NCBI RefSeq assembly: GCF_000007145.1 | Contig: NC_003902.1 | Span: 4,586,497 to 4,618,496, forward strand | DNA from: Xanthomonas campestris pv. campestris str. ATCC 33913 | Lineage (GTDB): Bacteria; Pseudomonadota; Gammaproteobacteria; Xanthomonadales; Xanthomonadaceae | Direction: 5' to 3' | DNA: 32,000 nucleotides | Shown here: positions 1 to 22,552 of the stretch, in pieces | Layout: every line of letters starts with the position of its first letter | Numbering within the stretch: position 1 is the first letter of the stretch | Notes under the pieces: model-generated | What the model was told of the DNA's origin: nothing | Seen by the model: the letters and a program-made list of their open reading frames with translations, nothing else | The model's database searches: none | Translations under genes and position numbers: made by a program

Positions 1-596
<596 letters not shown>

Positions 597-780
597 GGCG
601 GTGATGCGTGCGGGCAGGCGAGCGTGGTTGCATGCCAAGCGCATTGCCGGTGATCACGCTGCCGCACTGCGCTGCGTGGGCAGAACGAACGCCGCGTTTG
701 CGGGCGTGTTGAAGCCGTGCCGGTGCATGGCCGTGGCTGCACATGCTCTCGTCCATGAACGCGACTGCTGAAGTCAGAAG

Positions 781-804
781 GCCGCGCATTGCGCGGCTTT
801 CTTC
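781..804 (+). terminator. Candidate intrinsic terminator downstream of ydfG
   Basis: GCCGCGC-ATT-GCGCGGC forms a perfect 7-bp GC stem followed by TTTCTTCATT. It lies about 185 nt after the ydfG stop codon. Confidence 0.55.
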
Positions 805-956
805 ATTCGCGTCGATACGTCGAGAGATCGGTGGGTTGGTCGATCGGTAGCCGCTGCTTGTTGGCGCGATGTGGACAGACACAGCGCACGGCTGCGCGCC
901 TGTTCGGCCAACAAGGGTGTAGCGCATACCCAACGCAGGAGCCAACGCCGAGCGCG

Positions 957-2081
957 CTACGCCGGCTCGGCCACCACGGCCGAACTGCGCCGGCGAAGCA
1001 CCCTGCCGCGCAGGCGCAGGAACGGCCGCTCCACTGCGTAGTGCAACAACGCCCCGGCCAGCAGTGCGCAGACGCCGTAGACGGCGAACGCGAGGATGCC
1101 GCGCCCGTCCAGCGCCGCTCCCAGCCAGGTCTGGGTAACGTGGAACACCGCCTTGTGGGTCAGGTACAGGCTGTACGAAATGCATGCCAGCCAGGCCGCG
1201 CCCGGTACACGCAGCCTGCCGAGCGCGCTGTTGGTGGCGGTACCGGCCAGCACCAGGCATGCCAGGCCCAGCGACAACACCGGCCAGCCCACTGCATTGC
1301 CGAGCAGGCCGGTTCGGTCGCGGAACAGCCACAGCGCCAGCGCCATGACCGCCACGCCGGCCAGCGCGAAGGCGTTGCCGCGCTGCTGCAGGCGCTGCCA
1401 GGTGTGCGGGCGGAACACCTTCACCACCGCCAGCACCACGCCGGCCAGCAGGCAGTCCAGACGGTTCCAGGTGGGGTAATAGATGTCTTCGATAAACCAG
1501 TTGCGTTGCAGCCCGGCGCCGGCCGCATCCAGCGCGCTGTCATGCAGCCACACCCCCGCACGCAGCGCGATGCCTGCCACGACCACCGCGACGCACAGCA
1601 CGCCAAAGCGCAACGCCGACGGACGCCGCAGCAGTACCGTGGCCAGCAGCGGAAACAACAGATAGAAATGCTCTTCCACGCACAACGACCACGCATGCGA
1701 AAACGCGGCGTCACGGCCGTAATCGACCAGCAGATTCAGCGTAAAGGTCACAAACATCCACCACGGCGCCAGGCCCGGCGACTCGCGGAATCCCGGCCAG
1801 GCCAGGTACACCGCCAGCACCACCAGGAAGGCCGGCAAGATGCGGAAAGCGCGGCGCAGGTAGAAGTCGGTGAAATCCAGACGCTGCCCACTGGCCAGCG
1901 GCATCAGCACCTGCGTGCCGATCAGAAACCCGCTCAGCACGAAGAACAGATCCACGCCCATCCAGCCGTAGCGCGACAGCCATGCCCATTCCGGTCCCAG
2001 ACCACCGACCACGAACGCGTGGAACAGCATCACCCACACGATGGCGATACCACGCAACAGATCGAGAGCCGGATAGCGCAT
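957..2081 (-). CDS. Acyltransferase family 3 integral membrane O-acyltransferase (OafA/NolL-like)
   Basis: This 374-aa ORF is hydrophobic throughout, with multiple helices. The N-terminal LDLLRGIAIVWVMLFH and VDLFFVLSGFLI motifs are typical of Acyl_transf_3. Third-position GC is strongly high. Confidence 0.85.
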   Translation of the reverse strand: MRYPALDLLRGIAIVWVMLFHAFVVGGLGPEWAWLSRYGWMGVDLFFVLSGFLIGTQVLMPLASGQRLDFTDFYLRRAFRILPAFLVVLAVYLAWPGFRESPGLAPWWMFVTFTLNLLVDYGRDAAFSHAWSLCVEEHFYLLFPLLATVLLRRPSALRFGVLCVAVVVAGIALRAGVWLHDSALDAAGAGLQRNWFIEDIYYPTWNRLDCLLAGVVLAVVKVFRPHTWQRLQQRGNAFALAGVAVMALALWLFRDRTGLLGNAVGWPVLSLGLACLVLAGTATNSALGRLRVPGAAWLACISYSLYLTHKAVFHVTQTWLGAALDGRGILAFAVYGVCALLAGALLHYAVERPFLRLRGRVLRRRSSAVVAEPA

Positions 2082-2758
2082 GCGGGTAGAGGCAGTCGGG
2101 AGAACTCCGATTGTGCCCTAACCATCGCGGCGTTACGGATGGGTGCGCGTGCATTACGTGCAGGTGTCGCAGGCGCTGCGAGTAAACAATGCCGGCGTCA
2201 GCAGCGCACGTGCATGTGGCAATGCGCCGCAAGTGCACGCATGCCTGGATCAGAGGAAGCCTGTGCACGCATGAAAGACATGCCACTGCGCAACCACGCT
2301 GCCAGCGTGCATGCGATTCTGGCGATCGCGCGCCAACTGGCCGCCCCGCATGACGGGCGAATGATGCAAAGCAACGCAGTGCCGATGTCAGCGGCGCACG
2401 TTTGCTTGAACACTGTCGCGAGCGCATGCATGGAGCAGACGGCGGATACAGAAACGTACTCCACCGCCGCATCACGCGGCCAATCATGAAGACGCAGCCA
2501 GTGGCCCGATGAACCCTGGTGGCTCGCAGTGCTCTCACGTTAGATGGCCTTGCCTGCGCGTAGATCCAGCACGCAGCGCAGGCATACCTCCCACATGCAA
2601 CAAGGAACAGACCGCGTCACACGGTGGCCAGTTGATGCGTGCGCTATAGCCTTGCGCCCAGCACCGGCGCTTCAGCGACCAGACAAACGTGCCTGCTGCG
2701 GCAATGCATCGCGGCGCTGCTCACCTCAGCGCCGCCACATGCCAAACGCCATCGCGCC

Positions 2759-4093
2759 TCAGGCCATCGCCGGCTGCGTGCTCCGCGCATCCACGCTGAC
2801 GGGCGCGCCGGCCTCCAGTAACGCCCAGGCCTCCAGCTGGTCCACGGCCCGGCGGATGCCGTCTTCGTCGCGAATGCGTTGGCCCAGCGCAGCTGCGGCC
2901 GCACGCATGGTCGGCGTGCTGGCCTGGTCGATGGCATCGGCCAGGGCCTGCGGCAGCAACCCGTTACGTGACAACGCCGGCGGCGCCACACCGCGCTGGG
3001 CCAGGCAATGCGCCCAGAACGGTTGGTCGTAGCCGAACGGCAGCACCACCGACGGGATCCCTGCGGTCAGCGCCGCACCGGTGGTGCCGGCGCCACCGTG
3101 ATGCACGGCCACCGCCACGCGTGGGAACAACCAGTCGTGTGGCGCCTGCTCCAGATGGAAAAAGCGCGTGGCATCGTCGTCGGCGTCTTCCCCGGCCGCC
3201 AGCCCGCCCCAGCCGCTGGCCAGCAGCGCACGCTGGCCGGTCAGGCGCACCGCCGCCTTGACGGTGGCAGTGAGTTGCGCGGCATCGTTACTGGTCATGC
3301 TGCCGAAGCCGATGTACAGCGGCGGCGGCCCGGCTTGCAGAAACGCCTGCAGCGCCGCCGGCGGTTGCCACTGCGGCTGCGGCAACTGCCAGAAGCCGCA
3401 GACCTGCGCACTCTCCGGCCAGTCGGGCGGACGCGGACACAGATGCGCGCTGTAGCCATATAGCACCCGCAATGCACTGCGATCGGGCCCGCTCCACGGG
3501 TACGCCGGCAACCCCAATGCCGGGCGCACCACCTCGTTGAGCGCCGGGCGCATCAACTGCCAGCCGGCAAAGCGCATCACATGATGCAGCGCCACGCTCA
3601 CCAGCCCGGGCAGGCGCACGGTGGGCATCACCATCAACGGCAGATGGCGCGAGGCGGTCAGCGGCTGCAACTGCGCGAACACCACCGGCAGGCCATACCG
3701 CTGGCCCAGGCTATGAGCCAGGAAACTGGCGCTGCCCACGCCAAGAATCAGGCCGGCATCGGCGCAGGCGGCGCGGCCCTGGTCGGCCCAATCGCGCGCC
3801 CACTCCATCAGCTGAGCACGCAATTTGCCCCAGATGCCACGCCAGCCGCCACGCATCTCGGCGATGTCCGGATGCCCCTGCAACAGCTTCTGGTGATCGC
3901 CGCTCAGCGGGTAGAACTCCAGCCCGTTGGCAAGAATCAACGCGGCAAAGTTGGCGCTGGTCAGCACACGTACCCGATAACCACGCTGCTGCAGGCCACG
4001 GCCCAGCGCGATGATCGGGCGAACATCGCCATGCGTGCCCAGCGTGGCGATCACCACCGGGCGCTGGGATGACGCTGTGGAGGACTCAGGCAT
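2759..4093 (-). CDS. GT1-family glycosyltransferase (UDP-glycosyltransferase/MGT/RhlB-like, GT28 N-terminal domain type)
   Basis: The gene is 444 aa from ATG 4093. Its N-terminus is VVIATLGTHGDVRPIIALGRGLQQRGYRV, and the C-terminal donor-binding signature is HHGGAGTTGAALTAGIPSVVLPFGYDQPFW. I moved the start from the ORF-track 4303 to 4093 because the extra 70 aa overlap the NRPS coding region, and ATG 4093 overlaps the NRPS stop (ATGCCTGA). Confidence 0.85.
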   Translation of the reverse strand: MPESSTASSQRPVVIATLGTHGDVRPIIALGRGLQQRGYRVRVLTSANFAALILANGLEFYPLSGDHQKLLQGHPDIAEMRGGWRGIWGKLRAQLMEWARDWADQGRAACADAGLILGVGSASFLAHSLGQRYGLPVVFAQLQPLTASRHLPLMVMPTVRLPGLVSVALHHVMRFAGWQLMRPALNEVVRPALGLPAYPWSGPDRSALRVLYGYSAHLCPRPPDWPESAQVCGFWQLPQPQWQPPAALQAFLQAGPPPLYIGFGSMTSNDAAQLTATVKAAVRLTGQRALLASGWGGLAAGEDADDDATRFFHLEQAPHDWLFPRVAVAVHHGGAGTTGAALTAGIPSVVLPFGYDQPFWAHCLAQRGVAPPALSRNGLLPQALADAIDQASTPTMRAAAAALGQRIRDEDGIRRAVDQLEAWALLEAGAPVSVDARSTQPAMA

Positions 4094-7000
4094 ATTCGGC
4101 CACCCCGTCGCTGGCGGTGGTGATGCAGCCGTCGGTGCGCGCGGTTTTCGAGGTCGCCGCATGCAGCAGCGTGCTGAGCGTGGCCGAGTGCGCAGGCGAC
4201 AGCATCGAGTGGTGGTCGCTATCCAGGGTGTGCAGCTGCAGGGTGCGGACATACGGGCGCCATGCCTGCGGCCGGTAGTCCACCCACAGCGCATCGTCGC
4301 CACCGGAGGTCATGCGCACGCTGGCTTCGACGAACAGCACATCCTGCGCCAATGCACGCGGCTGGTAGCGCCGTGCCAGGTGCAGGTGATGCTGGGTCAC
4401 CGCGCCCAGATCATCCAGCAGCGTGGGGCGTTGATCGAGCAGCTGACGCACCGCCGGCAACGACATCAGCCCGTAGTGATCGCACAACAGGCTGGCGAGT
4501 TCGGCCACCGTGGTCGGCATGGGTTGTCCGTGCGCCAGGTTCAGATTGAGCGCATGCACCGAGGCACGCACGCCTTCGGATTCCGGCAACGCCGCGGCCT
4601 GCTGGCGATGCGGGTAACTGTCGAGCATGGCCAGCACCTCGACTTCCTCGCCAAGCGCATGCAGCTCGGCGGTGATCGCATGGGCGATCAGCCCGCCCAG
4701 CGACCAGCCCATCAGGCGATAGGGCCCGTGCGGCTGCACTGCGCGTAGCCGCGCCAGGTAATCGCGCGCAATCGCCTCGATGCTGTCCGGGCGGTGCAGC
4801 GGGTCGCTCAGGCCAGGCGACTGCAGCGCATACACCGGCCACTGCGGGTCGAGCTGCCCCAGCAAGGTGAGATACGACCAGCCAAGCCCCACCACCGGGT
4901 GGATGCAGAACAACGGCGTAACGCCTGCGGTGCCGGCACGCAGCGGCAGCAGCACGCCCAGTGGATCGTTCGGCGTATGGGTACTGCGCCGGACCACCTC
5001 GGCCAGCCCGGCAATGGTCGGCGCATGGAACAGCGTCCCCAGCGGCAGTTCCACCCCAAACAGCTGCGGAAAGCGTGCCGCCATTTCCGCAGCGCGCAGC
5101 GAGTCGCCGCCAAGCTCGAAGAAGTTGTCGTCCACGCCCACCACGGCAATGCCCAGCACGTCCTGCAGCATCGCTGCCAGCTGCTGTTCGAGTGCATCGC
5201 GCGGAGCCAGATGCGCACGCTGCGGCACAGCGCCCGGCGCCGGTAACGCGCGGCGATCGAGTTTGCCATTGGCCGTGAGTGGCAGCGCCTGCAACGGCAT
5301 CCACAGCGTGGGAATCATCGATGCCGGCAGGCGCTGCTGCAGATGCGCGCGCAGCAGCTCGGTGGACGGCGCGGTGCCGTGCTTGCCAACCACGTAGGCG
5401 AGCAGCTGCAACGCGTTGGCACCATCGTGATGCCCCACCACCACCGCCTGTGCCACCTGCGTATGCAGCAGCAGTGCGTTTTCGATTTCCGCCGGCTCCA
5501 CGCGGTGGCCACGGATCTTCAATTGCCCGTCCGCACGGCCGATGAATTCCAGCAGGCCGTCGCGGCGCTGACGCACGCGATCGCCGGTGCGGTACATGGT
5601 GCTGCCGTCATCGGCAAACGGGTCGTGCACAAACCGTTCGCTGGTGAGCTGCCGCTTGCCGCGATAGCCCTTGGCCACGCCCGCGCCCCCGATGTACAGC
5701 TCGCCGACCGCGCCGGTCGGCAACGGCTGCCGCTGCGCATCGAGCACGTACACGCGTGTATTGAGCAACGGCCGGCCGATCGGCGGCGCCGCCGCGTCGC
5801 TCAGCTGCAGCGGCATGATGGTCGACCAGATGGTGGTTTCGGTGGGCCCGTACAACTGGGTCAAACGGCCCACGCGGCTCAGCAGTTGCGCGGCCAGTTC
5901 GGGCACTAGGGCCTCGCCGCCGACCAGCGCATGCACGCGGTCCAGCGCCAGCTCCTGGTTGGCCAGCAGGATGCGCCACAACGACGGCGTGGCCTGCACC
6001 ACGCTGATCTGTTCGTTGGCGATCAGGCGCGAGAGGCTACGTGGATCGTGCGTAATCCCCGCAGGTGCAATGACCACGCGCGCGCCGGTCAGCAGCGGCA
6101 AATACAGTTCCAGCCCGGCGATATCGAAGGTGATGGTGGTGACCGCCAGCACGCGATCGCGCGGGCGCAATGCCAGTTCCTGCTCCATCGCATGCAGGAA
6201 ATTGGCCAGGTTGCGATGGCTGACTTCTACACCCTTGGGCACACCGGTCGAGCCGGAGGTGTACAGCACGTAGGCGGTGCCATCCGGCTGCGCCAGCGGG
6301 GCGATCGCGGCGGGCAAGACGGCCGGGCGCGGGTCAAGCCAGACCATGCCGCCGAGCAGATAGCGCTCGCACAGCGCAGGCTCGCAGACCAGCGCGATGG
6401 CACCGGAATCGTTGAGCATCTGGCGGTTACGCGCGGCCGGGCTTTCCGGGTCCAGTGGCAGATACGCCGCCCCGCTCCACATCACCGCCAGCAATGCCAC
6501 CAGCAACTGCTCGCTGCGCGGCAACGCGATGGCGACCACATCGCCCGGGCGCACACCATCGTCCACCCATTGCGCGGCGATGCGCGCGGCCAGCTCGCAC
6601 AGCGTGGCGTAATCCAGCGTGCGGTTGTCGTACTGCACCACCACCGCAGCGGGCATCAGCTCGGCACGCTGCAGCATGCCGTGCAGCAAGGTGCTCGGCT
6701 CCGGCAATGGCGCGGCGGTGGCGTTCCAGGTGTGCAGCAGACGCTGGCGCTCGGCATCGCCCAGCACATCGACCTGACCAAGCGCGCACTCCGGATCGGC
6801 GAGCACGGCATCGGCCAGATGGGTCAGACGGCGGCAATGCTCGGCCAGCTCCTCGCTGTCATACAACGCCGGGTTGGCATCCAGATCAAAGCGTAACGCT
6901 GCACCGTCGCCACGCTCGTAGCAGAAGATGGTCAGATCATCGGCCGGGCCATTGCACAGGTTATGCGGCACCGCGTAGGCCTCGCCAAACCGCAGTACAT

Positions 7001-8066
7001 AGTCGAAGGCTTCGATATTCACGGCCAGGCGTGCGAACTTCTGCTCGATGCCGAACAGGCCCAGATCGCGGCGCACATCCTCGAAGCGATATTGCTGGTG
7101 CCGCAGTGCACTCCTGACCACGGAGGCCACCTGCGCGAACAGTGCATGCACCGGCTGCTGCGGGTCCATCTTCAGACGCAGCGAAATGACATTGGCCACC
7201 AACCCGGCGGCCTGCCGGTAGCGTGCATTGATCCGGCCAGTCACCGGCATGGCCAGCACCAGGTCTTCTGCGCCGGTGCAGCGGTAGTAATACGTGGCAA
7301 TCAGCGCAATCAACATCTGCGGCAGGCTGGCACCGTAGTGCTTGCCCAGCGCCCGCAGCTGCACCACCTGCTGCGGGGAGAATTCCCCGGTGCCACGCAA
7401 CAACCCGGTGGACAGCTGGTTGCCCGGGCGCGCCAGGGTCGTCGGCGGTGGCAGGTCGGCCAGCTGCTCCATCCAGTAATTGCGATCACGCTGAAAGCGA
7501 TCAGAGTCGCGGTACTGCTGCTCCAGCTCGATCAACGACAGCGCGCTGCCGTACTCGGCAGGTGCCGGCTCGCACCCGGTGGCGTAGGCGGTATACAACA
7601 CCGCCATGCGCTGCATCATGATCGAAGCGCAATAGCCGTCCATCACCAGATGGCTCACACATTGCACCCACATGTGATGGTCTTCACCCAGACGGAAGAC
7701 TGCACATCGCCACAACGGCCCGTTCTGCAGATCCTCCGGCTTGCGGATCTCCTCTTCCACCCAATGCTCGGCCGCATTCCGTGGCGCAGGATCGTCGCTG
7801 AAGTTGAAATAATGGATCGGCGCGGTGTATTCGGGCATCACCACCTGGCTGGGCACGCCGTCGTGCTCGACGATGCATAGCCGCAGCGTGTCGAACTCGC
7901 GCGTGAGCTGCAGGCTGGCACGGAGCAACACTTCAGGATCGAGCGGGCCGAACAACTCCAATGCTTCGGACAACATCAAGGTGTTGTCGGTATGCAACTT
8001 ACTGGCCACCCACAGCCCGCGCTGCGCTCTGGTCAGGGGATGTGTCGGGGAAGAGTCAGCGTGCAT
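4086..8066 (-). CDS. Single-module nonribosomal peptide synthetase, domain order C-A-T(PCP)-TE
   Basis: The gene is 1326 aa from ATG 8066, with AAGGAA about 9 nt upstream; the ORF-track start at 8120 adds 18 aa with no RBS. The C-domain motif is SHLVMDG (His codon 7650-7652). A-domain cores are LYTSGSTGVPKGV (6231-6266), LYGPTETT, GELYIGGAGVAKGY, YRTGDRV, GRADGQLKIRGHRVEPAEIE and NGKLDRRAL. The carrier motif is FFELGGDSLRA (Ser codon 5100-5102). The thioesterase motif is GWSLGG (Ser codon 4701-4703). Confidence 0.92.
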   Translation of the reverse strand: MHADSSPTHPLTRAQRGLWVASKLHTDNTLMLSEALELFGPLDPEVLLRASLQLTREFDTLRLCIVEHDGVPSQVVMPEYTAPIHYFNFSDDPAPRNAAEHWVEEEIRKPEDLQNGPLWRCAVFRLGEDHHMWVQCVSHLVMDGYCASIMMQRMAVLYTAYATGCEPAPAEYGSALSLIELEQQYRDSDRFQRDRNYWMEQLADLPPPTTLARPGNQLSTGLLRGTGEFSPQQVVQLRALGKHYGASLPQMLIALIATYYYRCTGAEDLVLAMPVTGRINARYRQAAGLVANVISLRLKMDPQQPVHALFAQVASVVRSALRHQQYRFEDVRRDLGLFGIEQKFARLAVNIEAFDYVLRFGEAYAVPHNLCNGPADDLTIFCYERGDGAALRFDLDANPALYDSEELAEHCRRLTHLADAVLADPECALGQVDVLGDAERQRLLHTWNATAAPLPEPSTLLHGMLQRAELMPAAVVVQYDNRTLDYATLCELAARIAAQWVDDGVRPGDVVAIALPRSEQLLVALLAVMWSGAAYLPLDPESPAARNRQMLNDSGAIALVCEPALCERYLLGGMVWLDPRPAVLPAAIAPLAQPDGTAYVLYTSGSTGVPKGVEVSHRNLANFLHAMEQELALRPRDRVLAVTTITFDIAGLELYLPLLTGARVVIAPAGITHDPRSLSRLIANEQISVVQATPSLWRILLANQELALDRVHALVGGEALVPELAAQLLSRVGRLTQLYGPTETTIWSTIMPLQLSDAAAPPIGRPLLNTRVYVLDAQRQPLPTGAVGELYIGGAGVAKGYRGKRQLTSERFVHDPFADDGSTMYRTGDRVRQRRDGLLEFIGRADGQLKIRGHRVEPAEIENALLLHTQVAQAVVVGHHDGANALQLLAYVVGKHGTAPSTELLRAHLQQRLPASMIPTLWMPLQALPLTANGKLDRRALPAPGAVPQRAHLAPRDALEQQLAAMLQDVLGIAVVGVDDNFFELGGDSLRAAEMAARFPQLFGVELPLGTLFHAPTIAGLAEVVRRSTHTPNDPLGVLLPLRAGTAGVTPLFCIHPVVGLGWSYLTLLGQLDPQWPVYALQSPGLSDPLHRPDSIEAIARDYLARLRAVQPHGPYRLMGWSLGGLIAHAITAELHALGEEVEVLAMLDSYPHRQQAAALPESEGVRASVHALNLNLAHGQPMPTTVAELASLLCDHYGLMSLPAVRQLLDQRPTLLDDLGAVTQHHLHLARRYQPRALAQDVLFVEASVRMTSGGDDALWVDYRPQAWRPYVRTLQLHTLDSDHHSMLSPAHSATLSTLLHAATSKTARTDGCITTASDGVAEYA

Positions 8067-8953
8067 TGATGTGCGTTCCTTGTTGTTGGCGTGCAGTGAT
8101 CCAGCGCGTTCCCACCGCATTGCAGCATCAGGATGCAGGCGAGACCTTGCTGCCTTGTAAGATCATGGGGGTGAGCAACACCATCGATCACCGACATCTT
8201 CCGGCAATACGCGATGGAAACGCACAATGGAGACGCACACGAACGCGACGCACAGTCGACTGAATTGCAGTTGACTGTTAAAAGCCCCTTGCGTCGATAC
8301 AAGTTAATAAACACTAACAATCTGTGCACGCAATAAACCGTGCAAAAATCACGGTTTTCGCGTCGTGCGCAAATATTTTTACCGAAGCGTGATTTGAACT
8401 AGTGTTATTGATGCATAGGTCGCGCGCGCGCACTTCGCGATCGCAGCTGCCGCAGAAGCGCCTGATAAAGGCTGCATTCGTGCACTCAAGCCTCCACGCA
8501 TACTCGGAGTCTTCATCCATCGCAACGCATCGGATGGAGGCTCGAGTAAGACCACTTTGCGTAACGCTATTGGTATAACTGCGCCGCAGAGCGAATCACT
8601 TACCGAAATCGGACGGGCTCCAGAGAGCGGCGAACGTTTTAGCAAGCATGGCGTGTCCTCGCACGATCATCTGACAGTCGCCGAACTGTCATCGGCGGGT
8701 AGCAACCTTCGGGAACAACGCGCAGCGATTGCCTACGCCTTCTCGGCACACGCATGCGGCCAATGGCAGGCCTTACGCACAAGAAAGTGCGGCGTTGGTC
8801 ACTCTAATCGGTCGATGCGCATCGCGCGTGGCGCGGGCGTGTGAATGCATTACCCGGCTTGGAGAAGGCTGACAAGTGCACCCTGCTCCGTGGCAGGCAT
8901 GCGCACACACCACCCCCACTGCGCTGCGGCACTTGCCGCAGCGCAGCTGCCCA

Positions 8954-10840
8954 TCAGCCCAACGGCTCGTCGGACAGATAGGTGTAGCCGGTCAGGCCGG
9001 CTTCCAGGGCGTCGTGCAATTCCTGCGCGCGCTCGGGCGGCAACTGCGCCGCGGCGATACGTTCGGCATAGGTAGCACGCAGGGTGTCCAGCTGATAGCC
9101 CACGTAGTCGAGCATCACATCGGTGGTGTCGCCGCGACGCTGCTGCGCGATGCGGTAGCCGGTGCCGTCCACCGCCACTTCCACCGCATCGGTATCGCCG
9201 AACAGGTTATGGATGTCGCCCAGGATTTCCTGGTAGGCACCCACCAGGAAGAAGCCAATGCGATAGCTCTCGCCGGGGTTCAAGCCATGCAATGGCAGCG
9301 AGCTGTCCAGGCTTTCGTTCTCGACGTAGGTCTTGACCATGCCGTCGGAATCGCAGGTCATGTCGGCGATGATGCCGCGCCGCTGCGGCGCCTCGTTCAG
9401 GCGCTCGATCGGCACGATCGGGAACACCTGATCGATTGCCCACACATCCGGAATCGATTCGAACACGCTGAAGTTGACGAAGTACTTGTCCACCAGCCGC
9501 TCGTTGAGCTCGTCCAGCACCGGGCGATGGCTCTTTTCGTCGAAACTCAGGCGCGCACGCACGCCGTGGGCGATGGCGTAGAACAGGTCATCGATGCGCG
9601 CACGGTGGGTCAGGTCGATCTGGCCCAGCGCGTAGGCACTCAGCCCTTCGGCATGGAAGTGCTGCGCTTCCTGGAACAGTTCCACCGCCGGGCGCACATC
9701 GAGCTCGTCGTGGATCTCGCGCAGGTGACGGATCGCCGCCGGCTCGTCGTCGTGCGCATCCGGCACGCGGCCTTCCGGCGCCTGCTCCACTTCCGAGACG
9801 TTGGCGATCAACACTGCGTGGTGCGCGGTCATCGCGCGGCCGCATTCGGTGACGATGCGCGGCGGTGGCAGGCCGTGCTCTTCGCAGGCACTGGCCAGCG
9901 GCTGCACGATGTTGCTGGCGTACGAATGCAGGCCGTAATTGATCGAGCAATAGCTGCGCGAACGCGTGCCTTCGTAGTCGATGCCCAAGCCGCCGCCGAC
10001 ATCCACATGGCTGATCTTCGCGCCCAGGCGCGAGAGTTCCACGAAATACCGGGTGGCCTCGCGCATGCCGTTGGCGATGTCGCGCACGTTGGAAATCTGC
10101 GAGCCCATATGGAAATGCAGCAGGTTCAGGCTATCGGCGTATTCGGTGTCGCGCAGCGACTTCCACAGGTCCAGCACCTGGCGCGGCGACAGCCCGAACT
10201 TGGCCTTGTCGCCACCGCTGTTCTGCCACTTGCCCGCGCCCAGCGACGCCAGCCGCATGCGCACGCCCAGGCCCGGCTTGACGTCCAGCGCGCGCGCCTC
10301 TTCCAGCACCAGGTTCAGCTCGGAGGGCTTTTCGATGACGATGAAGGTCTGCAGGCCGAGCTTGCGCCCGATCAGCGCCAGGCGGATGTACTCGCGATCC
10401 TTGTAGCCGTTGCAGACGATCAGCCCACCCGGACGCGACAGTGCCAGCACCGCCATCAGCTCGGGCTTGCTGCCCGCTTCCAGGCCGAAGCCCTCGCCGT
10501 GGTGGCTGGCCAGCGTGCCGGCCACGCCACGGTGCTGGTTGACCTTGATCGGGTACACCGCGGTGTAACCACCGGCGTAGTCCCAATCGGCCTGGGCCTG
10601 GGCGAACGCCGCCTGCAGCTTGCCCAGGCGCTGGCCCAGGATGTCCGGGAAGCGCACCAGCAGCGGCAGCTTGGCGCCGGCCGCACGCGCGGCATCCACC
10701 ACTTCGGGCAGCGACACCGCAGGGCCGTCGGCGGTCGGTCTGACCACCACATGGCCGGCGTCGTTCACATCGAAATACCCATCGGCCCAATGCGGGATCG
10801 AGTAGGTCTTGCGGGCTTGGTCGAGGGACCAATCGCTCAT
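8954..10840 (-). CDS. speA: Biosynthetic arginine decarboxylase
   Basis: The gene is 628 aa from ATG 10840 (MSDWSLDQARKTYSIPHWADGYFDVN, the typical SpeA N-terminus). PLP-dependent decarboxylase features run throughout (YPIKVNQ, LEAGSKPEL, HFHMGSQ, DVGGGLGIDYEG). The 57 extra residues of the ORF-track start (11011) cross the intergenic region. Confidence 0.95.
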   Translation of the reverse strand: MSDWSLDQARKTYSIPHWADGYFDVNDAGHVVVRPTADGPAVSLPEVVDAARAAGAKLPLLVRFPDILGQRLGKLQAAFAQAQADWDYAGGYTAVYPIKVNQHRGVAGTLASHHGEGFGLEAGSKPELMAVLALSRPGGLIVCNGYKDREYIRLALIGRKLGLQTFIVIEKPSELNLVLEEARALDVKPGLGVRMRLASLGAGKWQNSGGDKAKFGLSPRQVLDLWKSLRDTEYADSLNLLHFHMGSQISNVRDIANGMREATRYFVELSRLGAKISHVDVGGGLGIDYEGTRSRSYCSINYGLHSYASNIVQPLASACEEHGLPPPRIVTECGRAMTAHHAVLIANVSEVEQAPEGRVPDAHDDEPAAIRHLREIHDELDVRPAVELFQEAQHFHAEGLSAYALGQIDLTHRARIDDLFYAIAHGVRARLSFDEKSHRPVLDELNERLVDKYFVNFSVFESIPDVWAIDQVFPIVPIERLNEAPQRRGIIADMTCDSDGMVKTYVENESLDSSLPLHGLNPGESYRIGFFLVGAYQEILGDIHNLFGDTDAVEVAVDGTGYRIAQQRRGDTTDVMLDYVGYQLDTLRATYAERIAAAQLPPERAQELHDALEAGLTGYTYLSDEPLG

Positions 10841-10872
10841 TTCGTTGTCTCGGCTGGGGCAAAAGGGCGTGA

Positions 10873-10908
10873 ATTGTAACGCCTGGCATGCCGAGGGTCC
10901 GTTACAAT
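10873..10908. promoter_or_regulatory. Perfect 9-bp inverted repeat in the speA/speE divergent promoter region
   Basis: ATTGTAACG (10873-10881) and CGTTACAAT (10900-10908) are separated by 18 nt. Each arm reads TACAAT (a near-consensus -10 hexamer) toward its own gene. It may be an operator, a promoter pair or an RNA hairpin; these cannot be told apart from sequence. Confidence 0.4.
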
Positions 10909-10915
10909 CCGCGCC

Positions 10916-11066
10916 GATCTGACGCCCTGTTCCCGATGGAAACGGGGCTGACGAGGGCTCGGACCTGGCCGTCAGCCGCATGGCTGCACCAGGCTGCGCC
11001 CCGACCCTCACCTGGCGCCGTGCGCCACCTTCTCCCGCCGGGAGCAGGAACAGCCCGTTTCTTTTC
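10916..11066 (+). promoter_or_regulatory. Candidate structured 5' leader / attenuator of speE
   Basis: Hairpin 10924-10948 is GCCCTGTTCC-CGAT-GGAAACGGGGC, 10 bp with one bulge. Its 3' arm (10939-10950, GAAACGGGGCTG) can instead pair with 11051-11061 (CAGCCCGTTTC), which is followed by TTTCTTTTCG. CTGACG occurs twice (10919, 10948) against a single CGTCAG (10970). These are mutually exclusive helices ending in a U-tract about 20 nt before the speE RBS. Confidence 0.35.
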
Positions 11067-11081
11067 GATTAGGACGTCCGC

Positions 11082-11939
11082 ATGAGCACCAACGACAACT
11101 GGTACATCGAACACTTCCAGCCCACCGGCTCGGCCATCGGCTACCGCATCAGCGGCAAGCTGGACGAGGTGCAGTCTCCGTTCCAGAAGATCGAGATCTA
11201 CCAGACCACCGATTGGGGCAAGCTGATGATCATCGACGGCGCGGTGATGCTCACCAGCCGCGACAACTTCTTCTATCACGAGATGATCAGCCACCCGGCG
11301 CTGTTCACCCATGCCGCACCCAAGCGCGTGGTGATCATCGGTGGCGGCGACTGCGGCACGCTGCGCGAGGTGCTCAAGCACCCCGGCGTGGAAAGCGCCA
11401 CCCAGTGCGACATCGACGAGCAGGTCACCCGCATGTCGGAGAAGTACTTCCCCGAACTGTGCGATTCCAATGACGATGCGCGCGCCGAGCTGCTGTTCGA
11501 CGACGGCGTGGCCTACATGGCCAATTGCCCGGCCGGCAGCGTGGATATCGTGATCGTGGATTCCACCGACCCGGTGGGCCCGGCCGAAGGCCTGTTCAAC
11601 AAGTCCTTCTACGAGAGCTGCTTCAAGGCACTCAAGGACGACGGCATCCTGGTGCAGCAATCCGAATCGCCGCTGGCGCTGCTGGACCTGATCAAGGAAA
11701 TGCGCACGGAAATGGGCAAGGCCGGCTTCCAGTCGTTCAAGACCCTGCCGTTCCCGCAGCCGTGCTACCCCACCGGCTGGTGGAGCGTGACCATGGCCAG
11801 CAAGCAGGCCAACGCGGATTTCGCCTTCCGCCAGGCCGACGCGCAGGCCAAGGGCTTCGACACGCTGTACTACACCGCGCACCTGCACACCGGCGTGCTG
11901 GTGGCACCGCCGTTTGTGGCCAAGGCGCTGGGCGAGTAA
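11082..11939 (+). CDS. speE: Spermidine synthase (polyamine aminopropyltransferase)
   Basis: This 285-aa protein contains YHEM..H, VVIIGGGDCGTLREVLKH, QCDIDE, DSTDPVGPAEGLF and the full SpeE architecture. Confidence 0.95.
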   Translation: MSTNDNWYIEHFQPTGSAIGYRISGKLDEVQSPFQKIEIYQTTDWGKLMIIDGAVMLTSRDNFFYHEMISHPALFTHAAPKRVVIIGGGDCGTLREVLKHPGVESATQCDIDEQVTRMSEKYFPELCDSNDDARAELLFDDGVAYMANCPAGSVDIVIVDSTDPVGPAEGLFNKSFYESCFKALKDDGILVQQSESPLALLDLIKEMRTEMGKAGFQSFKTLPFPQPCYPTGWWSVTMASKQANADFAFRQADAQAKGFDTLYYTAHLHTGVLVAPPFVAKALGE

Positions 11940-11993
11940 GCGTGAGAAACGCCGGCAGTGGAGTACGCGCTTGCCGGCGTCGTGTGAAACGAG

Positions 11994-12023
11994 AACGGGG
12001 CGGATGTTGTCATCCGCCCCGTT
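11994..12023. terminator. Bidirectional terminator hairpin between convergent speE and the OMP gene
   Basis: AACGGGGCGGATG-TTGT-CATCCGCCCCGTT forms a perfect 13-bp stem. A second hairpin (GCCGGCA..TGCCGGC) lies at 11951-11978. The U-tracts are weak on both strands. Confidence 0.6.
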
Positions 12024-12053
12024 GCCACATCTGCAGTTCCGACGCGCGTCTGA

Positions 12054-12836
12054 TCAGAAGCGCACTTCGGCACCAACGTTCAGCACTTCTGCGCGATTGA
12101 TGGTGATGTCTTCATCCGAGTAGTAGTAATCGTTGGCGTACACATAGTTCGTATAGAGCACGCTCAAGCTCGCGTGCCGGCCGAGGTCGACGCCAACGCC
12201 CGCACCGGCATAGCCGCCGGAAACGCGCTCGTTCGAGTCGCCTTGTGAATTAGCCGACCAGTATCCCAGCCGCACGACGGCAAACAGTGGGCTGTCGCCG
12301 AAGTTGAAGCGCGCCATGCCGCCCAGACTGCCGAATTCCACGCTAGGAACGTAGTAGCCGTCGTGATCACTGATACGGGCCAGCTTTCCAACTGCGGCCT
12401 CGAGGCCGATCAACGTCACCGGACCTGCCCGCCACCGATAACCGGCGTTGAGGCCAAGCATGTCCTGGTCGATGCTTTCGTACACCTTGCCCTGGCCGCC
12501 CTGCACACCGATAAACGCGCCACTCTTCAGGCGTTGTTCTTCCTGGCGTGGTGGCGGTGGTGCATACGCTGGTGCTGGTGTCGTGTCCACGACCGGGTAC
12601 GGCGCAGTGGCGGTAGTCATTCCATCGCTGGCGGTCCCGCTCGCATCTGTAGACTGCGGCGACGTGACGCGTGTTTGCTGCGTACTTGAGGCAGGCGCCT
12701 CCGCCCCCTGCGTACCGGCCTGCTGCTTTTGCTGCTGGCGGTAGCTGTCCCAGCCGCGCGATAACGATTGCGCCGAGGCCTGTGCCGTGACGCCAAGCGC
12801 CGTGCAGGCCAACAGCAGTGTTGCGGTCCTTTTCAT
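12054..12836 (-). CDS. Outer-membrane beta-barrel protein (OmpA-like/OMP_b-brl family) with a low-complexity N-terminal region
   Basis: The signal peptide is MKRTATLLLACTALGVTAQASA. It is followed by about 90 aa of Q/S/T/P-rich linker, then alternating amphipathic strands (GYRW, GLEAAVG, RLGYW, GAGVGVDL). The C-terminal EVRF ends in Phe, as is typical of OMPs. Confidence 0.8.
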   Translation of the reverse strand: MKRTATLLLACTALGVTAQASAQSLSRGWDSYRQQQKQQAGTQGAEAPASSTQQTRVTSPQSTDASGTASDGMTTATAPYPVVDTTPAPAYAPPPPRQEEQRLKSGAFIGVQGGQGKVYESIDQDMLGLNAGYRWRAGPVTLIGLEAAVGKLARISDHDGYYVPSVEFGSLGGMARFNFGDSPLFAVVRLGYWSANSQGDSNERVSGGYAGAGVGVDLGRHASLSVLYTNYVYANDYYYSDEDITINRAEVLNVGAEVRF

Positions 12837-13254
12837 CGCATCCCCATGTGTGGAACTCCATCGTCTTCCGCATCCTTGCGCGCGCAGGCATGGCCCAACG
12901 GCGTCCGGAAGTGGCGCAGTTGCCGTCAGTAGCTGGAGGCGTTCCCCACATCACCGTATGGCACGCGGCGCGCACGCCTTGGCACGCGCGCGAGTGATGC
13001 AGCCCCCTGACCGCAGCGGCACAGTGCCTGGAGTCTCATGCGCGGTCAAGACGTTAAGTGACCGGTTTCCGATGGACGGTTGAGGCGCGATGCCTGGTCC
13101 TTCCGGGCTGTCAGCCGTGCCTCGTCTCAACATAGCCGTTGTGCTGCGCCACCTCGGCATTTACCTCCAGCAACCGCCTGCCCCGGCACGATCGCCCAAG
13201 TGACTGATCTGGCAAAACGTTCCACCTCCGGAACATTTCATTTTTTTAACAAAT

Positions 13255-13286
13255 CTAATTTCAGAATTTGAAAGTTCTAAAATTAG
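13255..13286. promoter_or_regulatory. AT-rich 32-bp palindrome in the divergent OMP/kinase promoter region
   Basis: CTAATTTCAGAA-TTTGAAAG-TTCTAAAATTAG has arms matching 11 of 12. It is embedded in the only strongly AT-rich patch (about 13235-13290) of this part of the window, about 80 bp upstream of ATG 13365. Confidence 0.4.
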
Positions 13287-13364
13287 TCGGTCCCGATCCT
13301 TGCGATCACCGTGGACCTGCAGACGCGTGACCACTCCCGCGCCCCCAGAGTCCGGAGAGCCGTC

Positions 13365-14024
13365 ATGCACTACCAAGCGCTGGATACCGCCAGCCTGACC
13401 CTCGCCACCCCCGTGCTGCTCAAGCAAGGCACCCGCCTGCTCGAGCCCACCGTCTACCGCATCCATCTGGATGGGCAGCTGGCGGTGGTCAAGGACTACA
13501 GCCGCTACCGGCGCACCCTGCTGGCGCCGATCGCGCGGCTGATGGTGCGCCACGAGGCCAACATGCTGCGGCGCCTGCAGGGCTGGAAGCATGCACCGGC
13601 CTTGCTCGGCACCTTGGGCGGCCTGGCGCTGGGCATGGAGTTCATTCCCGGCGACACGCTCAGCGCCAGCGCGGTGGTGGGGCAGGAAGTCTTCCAGCAG
13701 CTGCAGCACGCCTTGCGCCGCCTGCATGCGGTGGGCATCACCCATAACGACCTGCATGGCACCAACGTGGTGGTCAGCGCCGGAGTGCCGGTGCTGATCG
13801 ATTTCACCTCGGCGTGGCGGTTCCCGCGCTGGTTACGCCGCAGCACGCTGTCGCGGCAGCTGCAGCGCAGCGATGTGGCGAACTTCCAGAAGATGCGTCG
13901 GCGCCTGGTCGGCATCGCGCCCAGCGACGCCGAAGCCGCGCTCACCGCCGAACCAGGCTGGGTGCGCGGCGTGCGTAACGGCTGGAAGCGGCTGTATCGG
14001 TGGCTGAAGGGTGGCGCTGCCTGA
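13365..14024 (+). CDS. Small protein-kinase-fold protein (RIO / Kdo-LPS-kinase-like)
   Basis: The gene is 219 aa from ATG 13365, with GGAGAG 6 nt upstream; the ORF-track GTG 13311 has no RBS. It has an AVVKDY lysine motif, the catalytic loop ITHNDLHGTNVVV and the metal-binding LIDF. Confidence 0.75.
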   Translation: MHYQALDTASLTLATPVLLKQGTRLLEPTVYRIHLDGQLAVVKDYSRYRRTLLAPIARLMVRHEANMLRRLQGWKHAPALLGTLGGLALGMEFIPGDTLSASAVVGQEVFQQLQHALRRLHAVGITHNDLHGTNVVVSAGVPVLIDFTSAWRFPRWLRRSTLSRQLQRSDVANFQKMRRRLVGIAPSDAEAALTAEPGWVRGVRNGWKRLYRWLKGGAA

Positions 14025-14081
14025 GACCCGGCAGGGGTGGGCTTGCGGTGCGTTGTTGATCGCAGGCTGGTGGGATCAACT

Positions 14082-14109
14082 GGACTGCGGACTGCGGACT
14101 GCGGACTGC
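14082..14109. repeat. Heptanucleotide microsatellite, GGACTGC x4
   Basis: Four perfect tandem copies lie in the intergenic region between the convergent kinase-like gene and glnB. Confidence 0.95.
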
Positions 14110-14298
14110 GATAAGTCTGTGCCCGTAGTAAGTCGGGCTACTGCGGTCGTCCGCAGACGATCACATCCAGATGCACGTGCATGCGCGCATGGCAGCGCCG
14201 TCGATCACGTCGTGGCGAGGTCCACCAGCGTCTCCACCCACTGCCCAGCACCAAGCACTACCTGGGAGCGTGTCATGCATCCCACGGACGAACGTGCC

Positions 14299-15100
<802 letters not shown>

Positions 15101-15115
15101 CCCAAGGCCGCCCCC

Positions 15116-16636
15116 ATGAGTCTGGCGCTGGTGCACAGCCGTGCCCGCGTGGGAGTGCACGCGCCTGAAGTCCGGGTGGAAGTGCATCTCTCCGGCGGCC
15201 TGCCTTCCACCCAGATCGTGGGCCTGCCCGAGGCCGCGGTGCGCGAGTCACGCGAACGGGTCCGTGCCGCCTTGCTGTGCGCACAGTTCGAATTCCCCGC
15301 ACGCCGCATCACCATCAACCTGGCGCCGGCGGATCTGCCCAAGGACGGCGGCCGCTTCGACCTGCCGATCGCGCTCGGCATCCTTGCGGCCAGCGGGCAG
15401 ATCGACCGCCAGGCCCTGGCCGACTACGAATTCCTCGGCGAGCTGGCCCTCACCGGCGAGCTGCGCGGCATCGATGGGGTGCTGCCTGCGGCCCTGGCCG
15501 CCGCGCAGGCCGGGCGGCGCCTGATCGTGCCGCTGGCCAACGGCGCCGAGGCGGCCATCGCCGGACATGTGCAGGCCTTTACCGCGCGCACCTTGCTGGA
15601 AGTGTGCGCCGCACTTAACGGCACCCAGCCGCCACCGCCCGCCGAACTGGCGATCGTGGCGCTCGGCGCCCGCGCGCTACCGGACATGGCCGACGTGCGC
15701 GGGCAACCGCATGCGCGCCGGGCGCTGGAGATCGCCGCGGCCGGCGGCCATCACCTGTTGCTGGTCGGCAGCCCTGGCTGCGGCAAGACCTTGCTGGCCT
15801 CGCGCCTGCCCAGTCTGTTGCCGGACGCCAGCGAGGCCGAGGCGCTGGAAACCGCCGCCATCACCTCCATCAGCGGACGCGGCCTGGACCTGGCGCGCTG
15901 GCGGCAACGTCCTTATCGCGCCCCGCACCATACCGCCAGCGCGGTGGCGCTGGTGGGCGGTGGCACCCATCCGCGCCCGGGTGAGATCTCATTGGCGCAC
16001 AACGGGGTACTGTTCCTGGACGAGCTACCCGAATGGCAGCGGCAGACCCTGGAAGTGCTGCGCGAGCCACTGGAGTCCGGCGTGGTCACCATCTCGCGGG
16101 CCGCGCGCAGCATGGACTTCCCGGCGCGGTTCCAGTTGGTCGCCGCAATGAATCCCTGCCCGTGCGGCTGGGCCGGCGACGCCAGCGGGCGATGCCGCTG
16201 CAGTGGTGACGCCATCCGCCGGTATCGCAGCCGCATCTCCGGGCCGCTGCTGGATCGCATCGACCTGCACGTCGACGTGCCGCGCCTGCCGCCGCAGGCA
16301 CTGCGCAGCGGTGCGACCGGCGAGGACAGTGCCAGCGTGCGTGCACGCGTTGCCGCCGCACGCGAACGCCAGCAGGTACGTGCGCAGGTGCCCAATGCCC
16401 GGCTGGACCAGGCCGCCACCGACCGCCACTGCCGGTTGGGCAATGACGATCAGCTGCTGCTGGAACGCGCCATCGAACATCTGCAGCTGTCCGCACGGTC
16501 GATGCACCGCATCCTGCGCGTTTCGCGCACCATCGCCGATCTCGACGACAGCGCCGACATCGCCACCCGTCACCTCACCGAAGCCATCGGCTACCGCAAA
16601 CTCGACCGTGCCCTTGATACCTCCAGCGCCGCATGA
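15116..16636 (+). CDS. comM: Mg-chelatase-like AAA+ ATPase ComM/YifB
   Basis: The 506-aa protein has a Lon-protease-like N-terminal domain (GLPSTQIVGLPEAAVRESRERV), Walker A GSPGCGKT, GVLFLDELPE, a Cys-rich CPCGW..C.C segment and a C-terminal Mg_chelatase_C domain. The reading frame is uninterrupted. Confidence 0.92.
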   Translation: MSLALVHSRARVGVHAPEVRVEVHLSGGLPSTQIVGLPEAAVRESRERVRAALLCAQFEFPARRITINLAPADLPKDGGRFDLPIALGILAASGQIDRQALADYEFLGELALTGELRGIDGVLPAALAAAQAGRRLIVPLANGAEAAIAGHVQAFTARTLLEVCAALNGTQPPPPAELAIVALGARALPDMADVRGQPHARRALEIAAAGGHHLLLVGSPGCGKTLLASRLPSLLPDASEAEALETAAITSISGRGLDLARWRQRPYRAPHHTASAVALVGGGTHPRPGEISLAHNGVLFLDELPEWQRQTLEVLREPLESGVVTISRAARSMDFPARFQLVAAMNPCPCGWAGDASGRCRCSGDAIRRYRSRISGPLLDRIDLHVDVPRLPPQALRSGATGEDSASVRARVAAARERQQVRAQVPNARLDQAATDRHCRLGNDDQLLLERAIEHLQLSARSMHRILRVSRTIADLDDSADIATRHLTEAIGYRKLDRALDTSSAA

Positions 16637-16637
16637 A

Positions 16638-16679
16638 GGGTCTTGGTTGATGGCTTATAACGGGTCTTGGTTGACGGCT
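16638..16679. repeat. Tandem direct repeat, 24-bp period x2 (core GGGTCTTGGTTGAYGGCT)
   Basis: GGGTCTTGGTTGATGGCT (16638-16655) and GGGTCTTGGTTGACGGCT (16662-16679) lie immediately after the comM stop codon. Confidence 0.8.
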
Positions 16680-17017
16680 CTGGCAACGCAACCTGCGGCA
16701 GACGCATGCGGGGGTCATGGTGCAGGCAAGACACATGGCCGCTGTGGTGTCACCGCAGGACTCGTAGCCAGGCTGCTCTGCGCTGCTCGATCAACACACT
16801 GCGTGTGCCGTGCGCTGCGTGGCCGCACGCCTGCGTTGCACCTGGCTGCGTTAATCTGCTCGGCACGCGCACTGCGCGGCGCCTGCTCGAAACAGCCCGC
16901 TGTGGTCAATCGCAGGAGCCCACAACCAGCGCGTAACGCCACCCCGCACCACATGCCGACACCCGATTCATGGCGGTGCGCGTACAACTGCGGCGATCCC
17001 ACTGCACAGAGGCCGCC

Positions 17018-17527
17018 ATGAGCCGACATCCCGACCTGTCCACCGTCGCATCATTGGACCTGAGCCGTTATCTCGGCACCTGGTACGAGATCGCCCGCCT
17101 GCCGATCCGTTTCGAGGATGCCGATTGCACCGATGTATCTGCGCATTATTCGCTGGACGCCGACGGCGGCATCCGCGTGCAGAACCGCTGCTTCACCGCC
17201 AAGGGCGAGCTCGAGGAAGCGGTTGGGCAGGCACGCGCGATCGATGAAACGGGCGCACGCCTTGAAGTCACCTTTTTGCCGGAAGGCTTGCGCTGGATTC
17301 CCTTCACCAAAGGCGACTACTGGGTGATGCGCATCGATAGCGACTACACCGCTGCGCTGGTTGGCAGCCCGGATCGCAAATACCTGTGGCTGCTGGCGCG
17401 CTTGCCGCAGCTGGACGAAAACATCGCGCAGACCTATCTGGCCCATGCACGCGAGCAGGGCTTCGATCTGGCGCCGCTGATCCACACCCCGCATACGGGG
17501 CGGCTGACCGAGCAGCCGCTCCCGTAG
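17018..17527 (+). CDS. blc: Bacterial lipocalin Blc-like protein
   Basis: The gene is 169 aa from ATG 17018. YLGTWYEIARLPIRFE, YSL..DGGI.V.N and SPDRKYLWLLAR match the E. coli Blc motifs as recalled. No signal peptide or lipobox is visible upstream in this frame. Confidence 0.85.
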   Translation: MSRHPDLSTVASLDLSRYLGTWYEIARLPIRFEDADCTDVSAHYSLDADGGIRVQNRCFTAKGELEEAVGQARAIDETGARLEVTFLPEGLRWIPFTKGDYWVMRIDSDYTAALVGSPDRKYLWLLARLPQLDENIAQTYLAHAREQGFDLAPLIHTPHTGRLTEQPLP

Positions 17528-17537
17528 CGCGGCACCG

Positions 17538-22525: not shown

Positions 22526-22552
22526 GGGGTGCACTATACGCACGCATGCACA

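Follow-up and report, generated by a model that had tools for sequence, protein, structure and literature searches.

The stretch analyzed here comprises 32,000 nucleotides of Xanthomonas campestris pv. campestris (Xcc) ATCC 33913 (contig NC_003902.1, positions 4,586,497 to 4,618,496) and is referred to below as the window. On its minus strand it carries a nonribosomal peptide synthetase (NRPS) gene and a family 1 glycosyltransferase (GT1, here also GT) gene, which together form a genuine, intact gene pair (Table 1). The NRPS is held in a minus-strand open reading frame (ORF) at 8120..4086 and, with the start placed at 8066 (MHADSS...), its translation of 1326 residues equals the database protein exactly. 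By exact-sequence look-up the NRPS is letter-for-letter AAM43098.1/AAY50991.1 and the GT is AAM43097.1/AAY50990.1; that is, the pair is XCC3867/XCC3866 of strain ATCC 33913 and XC_3952/XC_3951 of strain 8004, and many strains carry both ORFs in intact, identical form. We interpret the locus, with a probability of roughly 0.7, as the X. campestris copy of a widespread "short NRPS + GT1" unit, of which the characterized relative is the glycine-glucolipid gene pair of Alcanivorax.

XCC3867 is a stand-alone module with condensation (C), adenylation (A), peptidyl carrier (T, or PCP) and thioesterase (TE) domains. On this the ORF, its translation and the order of Pfam domains agree with a sequence-only reading made earlier from the letters of the window, and the catalytic motifs that this reading had called intact, SHLVMDG, FFELGGDSL (its GGDSL) and GWSLGG, are present in the translation at the coordinates it gave. 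XCC3866 has a Glyco_transf_28 domain at its N-terminus and an EryCIII-like domain at its C-terminus. At the junction the minus strand reads GAATATGCCTGAGTCC, with the GT ATG at 4093-4091 and the NRPS TGA at 4088-4086, so that the start codon of one gene and the stop codon of the other share the 8-base string ATGCCTGA, as that reading had also recognized; a GGTGG Shine-Dalgarno-like element lies 6 nt 5' of the ATG. Its further term, "co-translation", was too strong, because the 8-base overlap supports co-transcription and translational coupling and nothing beyond them. The ATGCCTGA overlap is kept in X. pisi, X. prunicola, X. translucens and a metagenome-assembled genome (MAG) of the Acidobacteriaceae, and in Dyella the corresponding sequence is ATGCGTGA.

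Table 1. Features of the NRPS-GT locus and its surroundings. Positions are those of the window; amino acid (aa) ranges refer to XCC3867.
Feature	Position	Strand	Basis and remarks
NRPS gene XCC3867 / XC_3952	4086..8066	-	3981 bp, 1326 aa, C-A-T-TE; ORF, Pfam and exact database match
Condensation domain, predicted starter-type	aa 8-444, 6735..8045	-	Pfam PF00668, E 2.5e-63; motif SHLVMDG
Adenylation domain	aa 467-935, 5262..6668	-	Pfam PF00501 (AMP-binding, 467-801) and PF13193 (AMP-binding_C, 860-935)
Peptidyl carrier (T) domain	aa 961-1024, 4995..5186	-	Pfam PF00550 PP-binding; FFELGGDSL with the phosphopantetheine serine
Thioesterase domain	aa 1051-1295, 4182..4916	-	Pfam PF00975; GWSLGG Ser1122, Asp1149, His1285
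GT1 glycosyltransferase gene XCC3866 / XC_3951	2759..4093	-	444 aa; Pfam PF03033 and PF06722; exact database match
GT start / NRPS stop overlap ATGCCTGA	4086..4093	-	8 bases; sequence
Intergenic region 5' of NRPS	8067..8953	-	887 bp, lower GC (0.57); conserved blocks, palindrome
speA	8954..11011	-	upstream of NRPS
speE	11082..11939	+	upstream of NRPS
Non-coding gap 3' of GT	2082..2758	-	677 bp; no convincing ORF; terminator-like hairpin 2625..2611
Acyl_transf_3 (OafA-like) membrane acyltransferase gene	957..2081	-	downstream of GT
Short-chain dehydrogenase (SDR) gene, truncated	12..596	+	downstream; SDR family confirmed

The substrate specificity of the A domain was read at the ten Stachelhaus positions of a MAFFT alignment of 127 family members. 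The code of XCC3867, DILQLGLIWK, is of the glycine type and is identical to the codes published for XCC3867 and for ABO_1784 of Alcanivorax borkumensis; variants of the form DILQLG[L/F/M][I/V]WK occur in almost all of the 127 sequences. In the same alignment the FFELGGDSL carrier motif is kept across the family, and the TE residues Ser1122/Asp1149/His1285 are kept in at least 95% of the relatives.

The C domain was typed by its ranking against all PDB sequences and by residue alignment, with the published tree of Royer et al., in which the C domains of short NRPSs cluster with starter C domains (PMC3849588), cited beside them. The best matches were to RzmA-Cs (7C1K/7C1H/7C1P, E 4e-70) and CDA-C1 (4JN3, 2.6e-49), followed by ObiF1 (3.8e-48) and EntF (1.7e-44), whereas elongation-type (LCL) domains, for example those of TycC and SrfA-C, matched at 1e-20 or worse. 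The two leading relatives are lipoinitiation domains: 7C1H represents RzmA-Cs, a starter condensation domain with acyl-CoA donors, and 4JN3/4JN5 the starter domain of CDA (PMC7804268). In RzmA the side chain of R148 gates how long the acyl chain may be, and small residues there admit C8-C16 acyl-CoA (PMC7804268). Ala147 of XCC3867 aligns with this gate, a position occupied by Gly in 106 and by Ala in 9 of the 127 relatives. A starter-type, lipoinitiating C domain predicted to accept an acyl thioester, as the sequence-only reading had suggested, is thereby supported, and a glycosylated N-acyl amino acid, the product class it had proposed, is the most likely one. For the GT the nearest solved structure is the yeast sterol 3-beta-glucosyltransferase (5XVM/5GL5, E 2.4e-46), followed by the vancomycin Gtf enzymes; this fits a UDP-glucose-dependent enzyme that would act on the hydroxyl of a hydrophobic acceptor, the sugar being a prediction from this similarity.

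The same evidence bears on the function suggested by legacy annotation ("entF / ATP-dependent serine activating enzyme"), namely an EntF-like siderophore synthetase in which serine would be condensed with an aryl acid, for example 2,3-dihydroxybenzoate (DHB). XCC3867 shares the C-A-T-TE domain order with EntF, its best partial NCBIfam matches are MxcG and EntF, database names for it include "enterobactin synthetase component F", and one paper has placed the ortholog XAC3922 among iron genes on the basis of annotation. Its score against the NCBIfam EntF equivalog, however, is 642 bits where the cut-off is 2400, its A-domain code is for glycine and not serine, and its C domain lies nearer to the lipoinitiation starters (4e-70 and 2.6e-49) than to EntF (1.7e-44). 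Moreover, the 32-kb window contains no DHB-synthesis, aryl-carrier, receptor or ent-type genes, and the constant partner of the NRPS across phyla is, among the matches listed, a GT1 gene. On code, cut-off score, C-domain ranking, gene context and constant GT partner we reject the siderophore function as extremely improbable.

The pair had been presented by the sequence-only reading as an orphan without a recognized counterpart. It is neither orphan nor undescribed, because Royer et al. 2013 listed these very genes. Their section on "short NRPS genes" describes genes of about 4 kb that encode one C-A-PCP-TE module and, at their 3' end, share 4 or 8 bp with a glycosyltransferase gene (PMC3849588). 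Additional file 3 of that paper names XCC3867, XC_3952, Xccb100_4052 and XAC3922 with the signature DILQLGLIWK (Gly), paired with XCC3866 and its equivalents; the pairs given are XALc_0364/0365, XALc_1145/1144, XCC3867/3866, XC_3952/3951 and XAC3922/3921 (PMC3849588). Homologs with the same signature were reported in A. borkumensis as ABO_1784/ABO_1783, with a contiguous phosphopantetheinyl transferase (PPTase) gene, ABO_1782, and the predicted product was composed of an amino acid, a beta-hydroxy acid and a sugar (PMC3849588). The product hypothesis of the sequence-only reading therefore repeats one already in print, in which this product class had been predicted for these genes, and the claim of an orphan pair is further contradicted by full-length homology to ABO_1784/1783. 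As to novelty more broadly, the locus turned out to be syntenic and ancestral and its family to include a characterized member, although the identity to that member is only 42-44%.

The Alcanivorax NRPS was recovered by a search seeded with the Spongiibacter ortholog, and its 90% cluster contains CAL17232.1 of A. borkumensis SK2. XCC3867 and ABO_1784 (CAL17232.1) share 42% identity and 60% positives over 1313 residues and are colinear through all four domains. XCC3866 is 44% identical and 60% similar to the GT of Alcanivorax sp. 97CO-5, which we take to be the counterpart of ABO_1783. In both the Alcanivorax and Spongiibacter loci the gene order is NRPS-GT-PPTase. ABO_1784 reportedly makes tetra-3-hydroxydecanoyl-glycine from 3-hydroxydecanoyl-CoA and glycine, after which ABO_1783 is said to glucosylate it (Cui et al. 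2025). The Alcanivorax lipid itself has glucose glycosidically bound to four ester-linked C6-C12 3-hydroxy acids, with the terminal carboxyl of the hydroxyacyl chain amide-linked to glycine, and is associated with the cell wall (PMC10710537).

At 42-44% identity the nature of the sugar, the acyl chain length and the number of acyl units are not safely transferable from Alcanivorax to Xanthomonas. This leaves room for a different product from the same family: a single-acyl N-(3-hydroxy)acyl-glycine glycoside, a glycolipid with a sugar other than glucose, or one O-acylated by the Acyl_transf_3 protein encoded downstream. The sugar specificity of a GT1 is not readable from its sequence, rhamnose and three acyl units are used in the related variovoracin and rhizoleucinoside systems (PMC12964202), and the Acyl_transf_3 gene is syntenic with the pair throughout Xanthomonas. 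Nevertheless, Alcanivorax has the very same glycine code, with matching architecture and gene order, the nearest solved GT relative uses UDP-glucose, and the Acyl_transf_3 gene lies across a 677-bp non-coding gap and is unlinked to the pair outside Xanthomonas. We therefore judge such a variant product unlikely and favor a glycine glucolipid of the Alcanivorax type.

Orthologs of the NRPS are found at 82-90% identity in most Xanthomonas species, at 72% in X. maliensis, at 57-59% in the X. translucens group and at about 50% in Dyella, Lysobacter, Luteimonas, Marilutibacter, Frateuria and Rhodanobacter; X. albilineans has two copies, at 67% and 53%. A loss of the pair is presumed for X. oryzae and X. 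sacchari. Both major Xanthomonas clades retain the order speE/speA-NRPS-GT-Acyl_transf_3-SDR, and the locus is ancestral in the genus. A scan of contigs with the GT alignment returned at least 600 matching stretches, and the distribution that follows is a sample and indicative; Alcanivorax is absent among the matches listed, which also bound the following statements on gene linkage. The NRPS-GT pair occurs with differing flanks in Lysobacter capsici, Dyella caseinilytica, an Acidobacteriaceae MAG, Spongiibacter, Acetobacter and Acetobacteraceae. The order is inverted, with the GT upstream of the NRPS, in a Janthinobacterium lividum MAG and one Acetobacteraceae MAG, so the pairing is kept but the overlapping arrangement is not universal. 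A self-sufficient two-gene module, to which the host supplies the acyl donor, the sugar donor and often the PPTase, shows this pattern. GT1 homologs with 35-41% identity in Chloroflexota, cyanobacteria and actinomycetes are not linked to an NRPS; the GTs paired with an NRPS therefore make up one part of a wider family.

Several individual loci and records deserve separate mention. In Dyella caseinilytica (locus 13397-17793) a MacA/MacB/OEP-type efflux system follows directly after the GT on the opposite strand and could therefore be a lipid exporter, and in Lysobacter capsici (locus 13785-17701) the neighbors are a patatin-like lipase, EptA and PAP2; neither set of neighbors is kept with the pair elsewhere. 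In Xanthomonas sp. MUS 060 (JZIM01000020.1, locus 7079-13436) the NRPS call spans 1811 aa and includes two AMP-binding regions, with a separate Condensation fragment of 326 aa immediately upstream, which suggests an internal tandem duplication or mis-assembly; the same locus has three extra genes, one of them HSP70/MreB-like, between the GT and Acyl_transf_3 genes. In X. euvesicatoria ATCC 11633 (NZ_JAJIUJ010000105.1) the tblastn matches to the NRPS, speA and Acyl_transf_3 are each split at a single point, and three adjacent frame-broken genes make assembly errors likelier than pseudogenes. Finally, clustering of the protein collection at 90% identity puts the X. campestris GT and NRPS together, presumably an artefact that stems from a fused or read-through gene call; for this reason no X. 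campestris GT appeared among the GT search matches, of which the best was 86% identical (X. arboricola).

Both genes are clearly under purifying selection. In comparisons with X. pisi and X. prunicola, at dS 0.6-0.7, the NRPS has a ratio of nonsynonymous to synonymous substitution rates (dN/dS) of 0.10-0.12 and the GT one of 0.14-0.19. There are also published observations that touch on expression and phenotype: in X. citri, XAC3921 and XAC3922 are co-induced in planta by quorum sensing through the diffusible signal factor (DSF)/Rpf system, with log2 fold changes of 1.52 and 1.42 (PMC6337780), and a screen for lower activity of the hrpX promoter yielded a Tn5 insertion in XC_3951, which was not followed up there (PMC6122198).

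A number of points weigh against assigning the pair to the Alcanivorax-type pathway. The functional assignment of ABO_1782-1784 reportedly rests on Cui et al. 2025 (Nat Chem Biol, doi 10.1038/s41589-025-01908-1). The identity to the Alcanivorax enzymes is only 42-44%, as noted above, and in the 127-member alignment the first His of the HHxxxDG motif of the C domain is Ser in the Xanthomonas clade. We found no metabolite linked to these genes in any Xanthomonas in the literature. Also, the pair is not contiguous with a PPTase gene, unlike its counterparts in Alcanivorax and Spongiibacter, and Royer et al., to whom Xcc showed no XaPPTase-like gene, suggested a possible loss of function (PMC3849588).

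That suggestion, which they made because neither Xcc nor X. citri has an XaPPTase-like gene (PMC3849588), implies that the pair is a non-functional relic in X. campestris whose carrier domain is not activated for want of a dedicated enzyme. Consistent with it are the lack of a PPTase among the large ORFs of the 32-kb window and the Ser that replaces the first His of the C-domain motif. A relic, however, would hardly show intact ORFs identical in many strains, a dN/dS of 0.10-0.19 at dS of about 0.65, and a conserved start/stop overlap, and in XCC3867 all catalytic residues are retained, among them the PCP Ser, the TE triad and the second of the two His in the C motif. The X. citri orthologs, furthermore, are transcribed and DSF-regulated in planta (PMC6337780). 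A broad Sfp-type PPTase is available as well: XcHetI is reported to be the single Sfp-type PPTase of Xcc, acting in primary and secondary metabolism (PMC13001928, citing Chen et al. 2022), and we regard it as the candidate PPTase for the XCC3867 carrier domain. Given the selection, conservation and expression, we reject the relic explanation as quite improbable and retain a functional glycine-glycolipid pathway.

The surroundings of the pair were examined for regulatory elements and further pathway genes. The polyamine genes speA and speE lie upstream, as the sequence-only reading had observed, and its statement that the window is without a PPTase, MbtH, transporter or second NRPS module holds among the large ORFs of the 32 kb. 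The intergenic region 5' of the NRPS is a probable promoter/operator region. It contains, in an AT-rich stretch at 8335-8357, about 270-290 bp 5' of the NRPS start, the perfect palindrome AAACCGTG-N7-CACGGTTT, which occurs only once in the window. The palindrome core CGTGATTTTTGCACGG and the blocks GTTCAAATCAC, GTTAGTGTT and CATTGTGCGTTTCCATCGCGTATTGCCGG are kept among clade-2 Xanthomonas, but not in X. translucens, and the palindrome region is a candidate operator or promoter region. A scan of the region found no sigma-70 consensus promoter, no Clp/CAP-type TGTGA-N6-TCACA site was found 5' of the NRPS, and Rfam gave no match within window positions 1-12000.

On the other side of the pair, the non-coding gap 3' of the GT is likely the end of the two-gene operon; the number of terminator-like sites in the region, including the hairpin listed in Table 1, is not above chance. 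In every Xanthomonas locus examined, the Acyl_transf_3 gene beyond the gap accompanies the pair in synteny, at 76-85% identity. As a third member of the cluster we have rejected it for now: its synteny is confined to Xanthomonas, the 677-bp gap separates it from the GT, and it is absent beside the pair in other genera. Elsewhere in the window a fatty-acid desaturase gene (20318-21439, minus strand), a gene for a ferredoxin-reductase-type FAD/NAD/2Fe-2S protein (21449-22543, minus strand) and a divergent TetR regulator gene (22619-23266, plus strand) resemble a small operon for lipid modification; nothing evident connects them with the NRPS pair.

From these data the following pathway can be proposed. 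The carrier domain would first be phosphopantetheinylated by a PPTase encoded elsewhere, for which the literature cited above offers XcHetI as a candidate, and the A domain, judging from its code, would activate glycine and load it onto the carrier. Since the C domain resembles acyl-CoA-using starter domains and has a small residue at the gate, it may use a 3-hydroxyacyl thioester of medium or long chain, drawn from primary metabolism, to N-acylate the glycine held on the carrier. Further 3-hydroxyacyl units might then be added in ester linkage, giving an oligo(3-hydroxyacyl)-glycine, a step suggested by analogy with Alcanivorax alone. The TE would presumably hydrolyze the product off the carrier. 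The co-transcribed and translationally coupled GT1 would then place a hexose, most likely glucose from UDP-glucose, on the free 3-hydroxyl of the lipid, as its similarity to the sterol glucosyltransferase and to the Alcanivorax GT suggests. Glycosylation before release by the TE, the order put forward in the sequence-only reading, is not supported; in the Alcanivorax model the NRPS is said to release the aglycone and the GT to act afterwards. The product to be expected is a glycosyl-(3-hydroxyacyl)n-glycine that is surface-active and cell-associated; with a hexose and four 3-OH-C10 units it would have a neutral mass of about 917.6 Da, although iso-branched C11-C13 units may be used in Xanthomonas.

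Because of the hrpX hint from the Tn5 insertion in XC_3951 and the DSF induction of XAC3921/3922 in planta, one may speculate further that Xanthomonas and many other Lysobacterales make from their own 3-hydroxy fatty acids a so far undetected glycine glycolipid of the cell surface, under DSF control, that influences wetting, attachment or hrp/type III secretion during plant infection. We put this forward as a doubtful conjecture.

These findings call for a correction in annotation: many records still read "entF / serine activating enzyme / siderophore", an interpretation adopted in at least one transcriptome paper, and the evidence points instead to a pathway for a glycine-lipid-sugar surfactant. 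They do not reveal a new class of system, since the architecture, the predicted product and a characterized homolog were already in the literature. The pair is conserved, expressed and selected in most Xanthomonas pathogens, and its metabolite could be a surface-active lipid for leaf colonization or for DSF-regulated behavior; the identity of this metabolite would show whether the Alcanivorax chemistry extends to plant-associated bacteria.

Compared with known systems, XCC3867 resembles EntF and MxcG in being a stand-alone C-A-T-TE (or C-A-T-R) module that needs an external acyl donor, but it differs from them in its code, which is for glycine and not serine or lysine, in its glycosyltransferase partner and in the lack of aryl-acid genes nearby. 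There is also a likeness to the variovoracin (rlpA-F) and rhizoleucinoside clusters of Variovorax, Janthinobacterium and Bradyrhizobium BTAi1, in which a starter-C NRPS gene is likewise followed by a GT1 gene and which yield surfactants composed of a sugar, an oligo(3-hydroxyacyl) chain and an amino acid or peptide (PMC12964202); how the oligo-hydroxyacyl chain is assembled was left open in the variovoracin study (PMC12964202). The NRPSs of those clusters, however, end in a reductase domain that gives leucinol, whereas XCC3867 ends in a thioesterase. They have Ser/Leu codes, an MbtH protein and often a second rhamnosyltransferase and a major facilitator superfamily (MFS) exporter, and their sugar is rhamnose. 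The reductase end, the MbtH protein and the RlpC-type rhamnosyltransferase have no equivalents in the Xanthomonas pair, with no MbtH in the window, and the GT of BTAi1 shares only 23% identity with that of the Xanthomonas type (Royer et al. 2013, PMC3849588).

With the short NRPS + GT pairs of Royer et al. the agreement is complete: the locus has a 3981-bp C-A-PCP-TE gene and an 8-bp overlap with the GT gene, and is itself a listed member. To that description the present analysis adds the purifying selection, the genus-wide synteny, the prediction from the gate residue, the candidate PPTase and the direct alignment with ABO_1784. The Alcanivorax pair differs in several respects. Its product is known, with glycine amide-linked to 3-hydroxy fatty acids and with glucose, whereas that of Xanthomonas is predicted. 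An Sfp/EntD-type PPTase gene adjoins the pair there, and none is present in the 32-kb Xanthomonas window. In Alcanivorax sp. 97CO-5 the NRPS and GT genes are 122 bases apart, where those of Xanthomonas overlap by 8. The C-domain motif is HHxxxDG in Alcanivorax and SHxxxDG in Xanthomonas, and the hosts are an alkane degrader and a plant pathogen, respectively. What the two share is a one-module C-A-T-TE NRPS gene followed by a GT1 gene in the same order, an identical 10-residue glycine code and the same small class of residue at the acyl gate.

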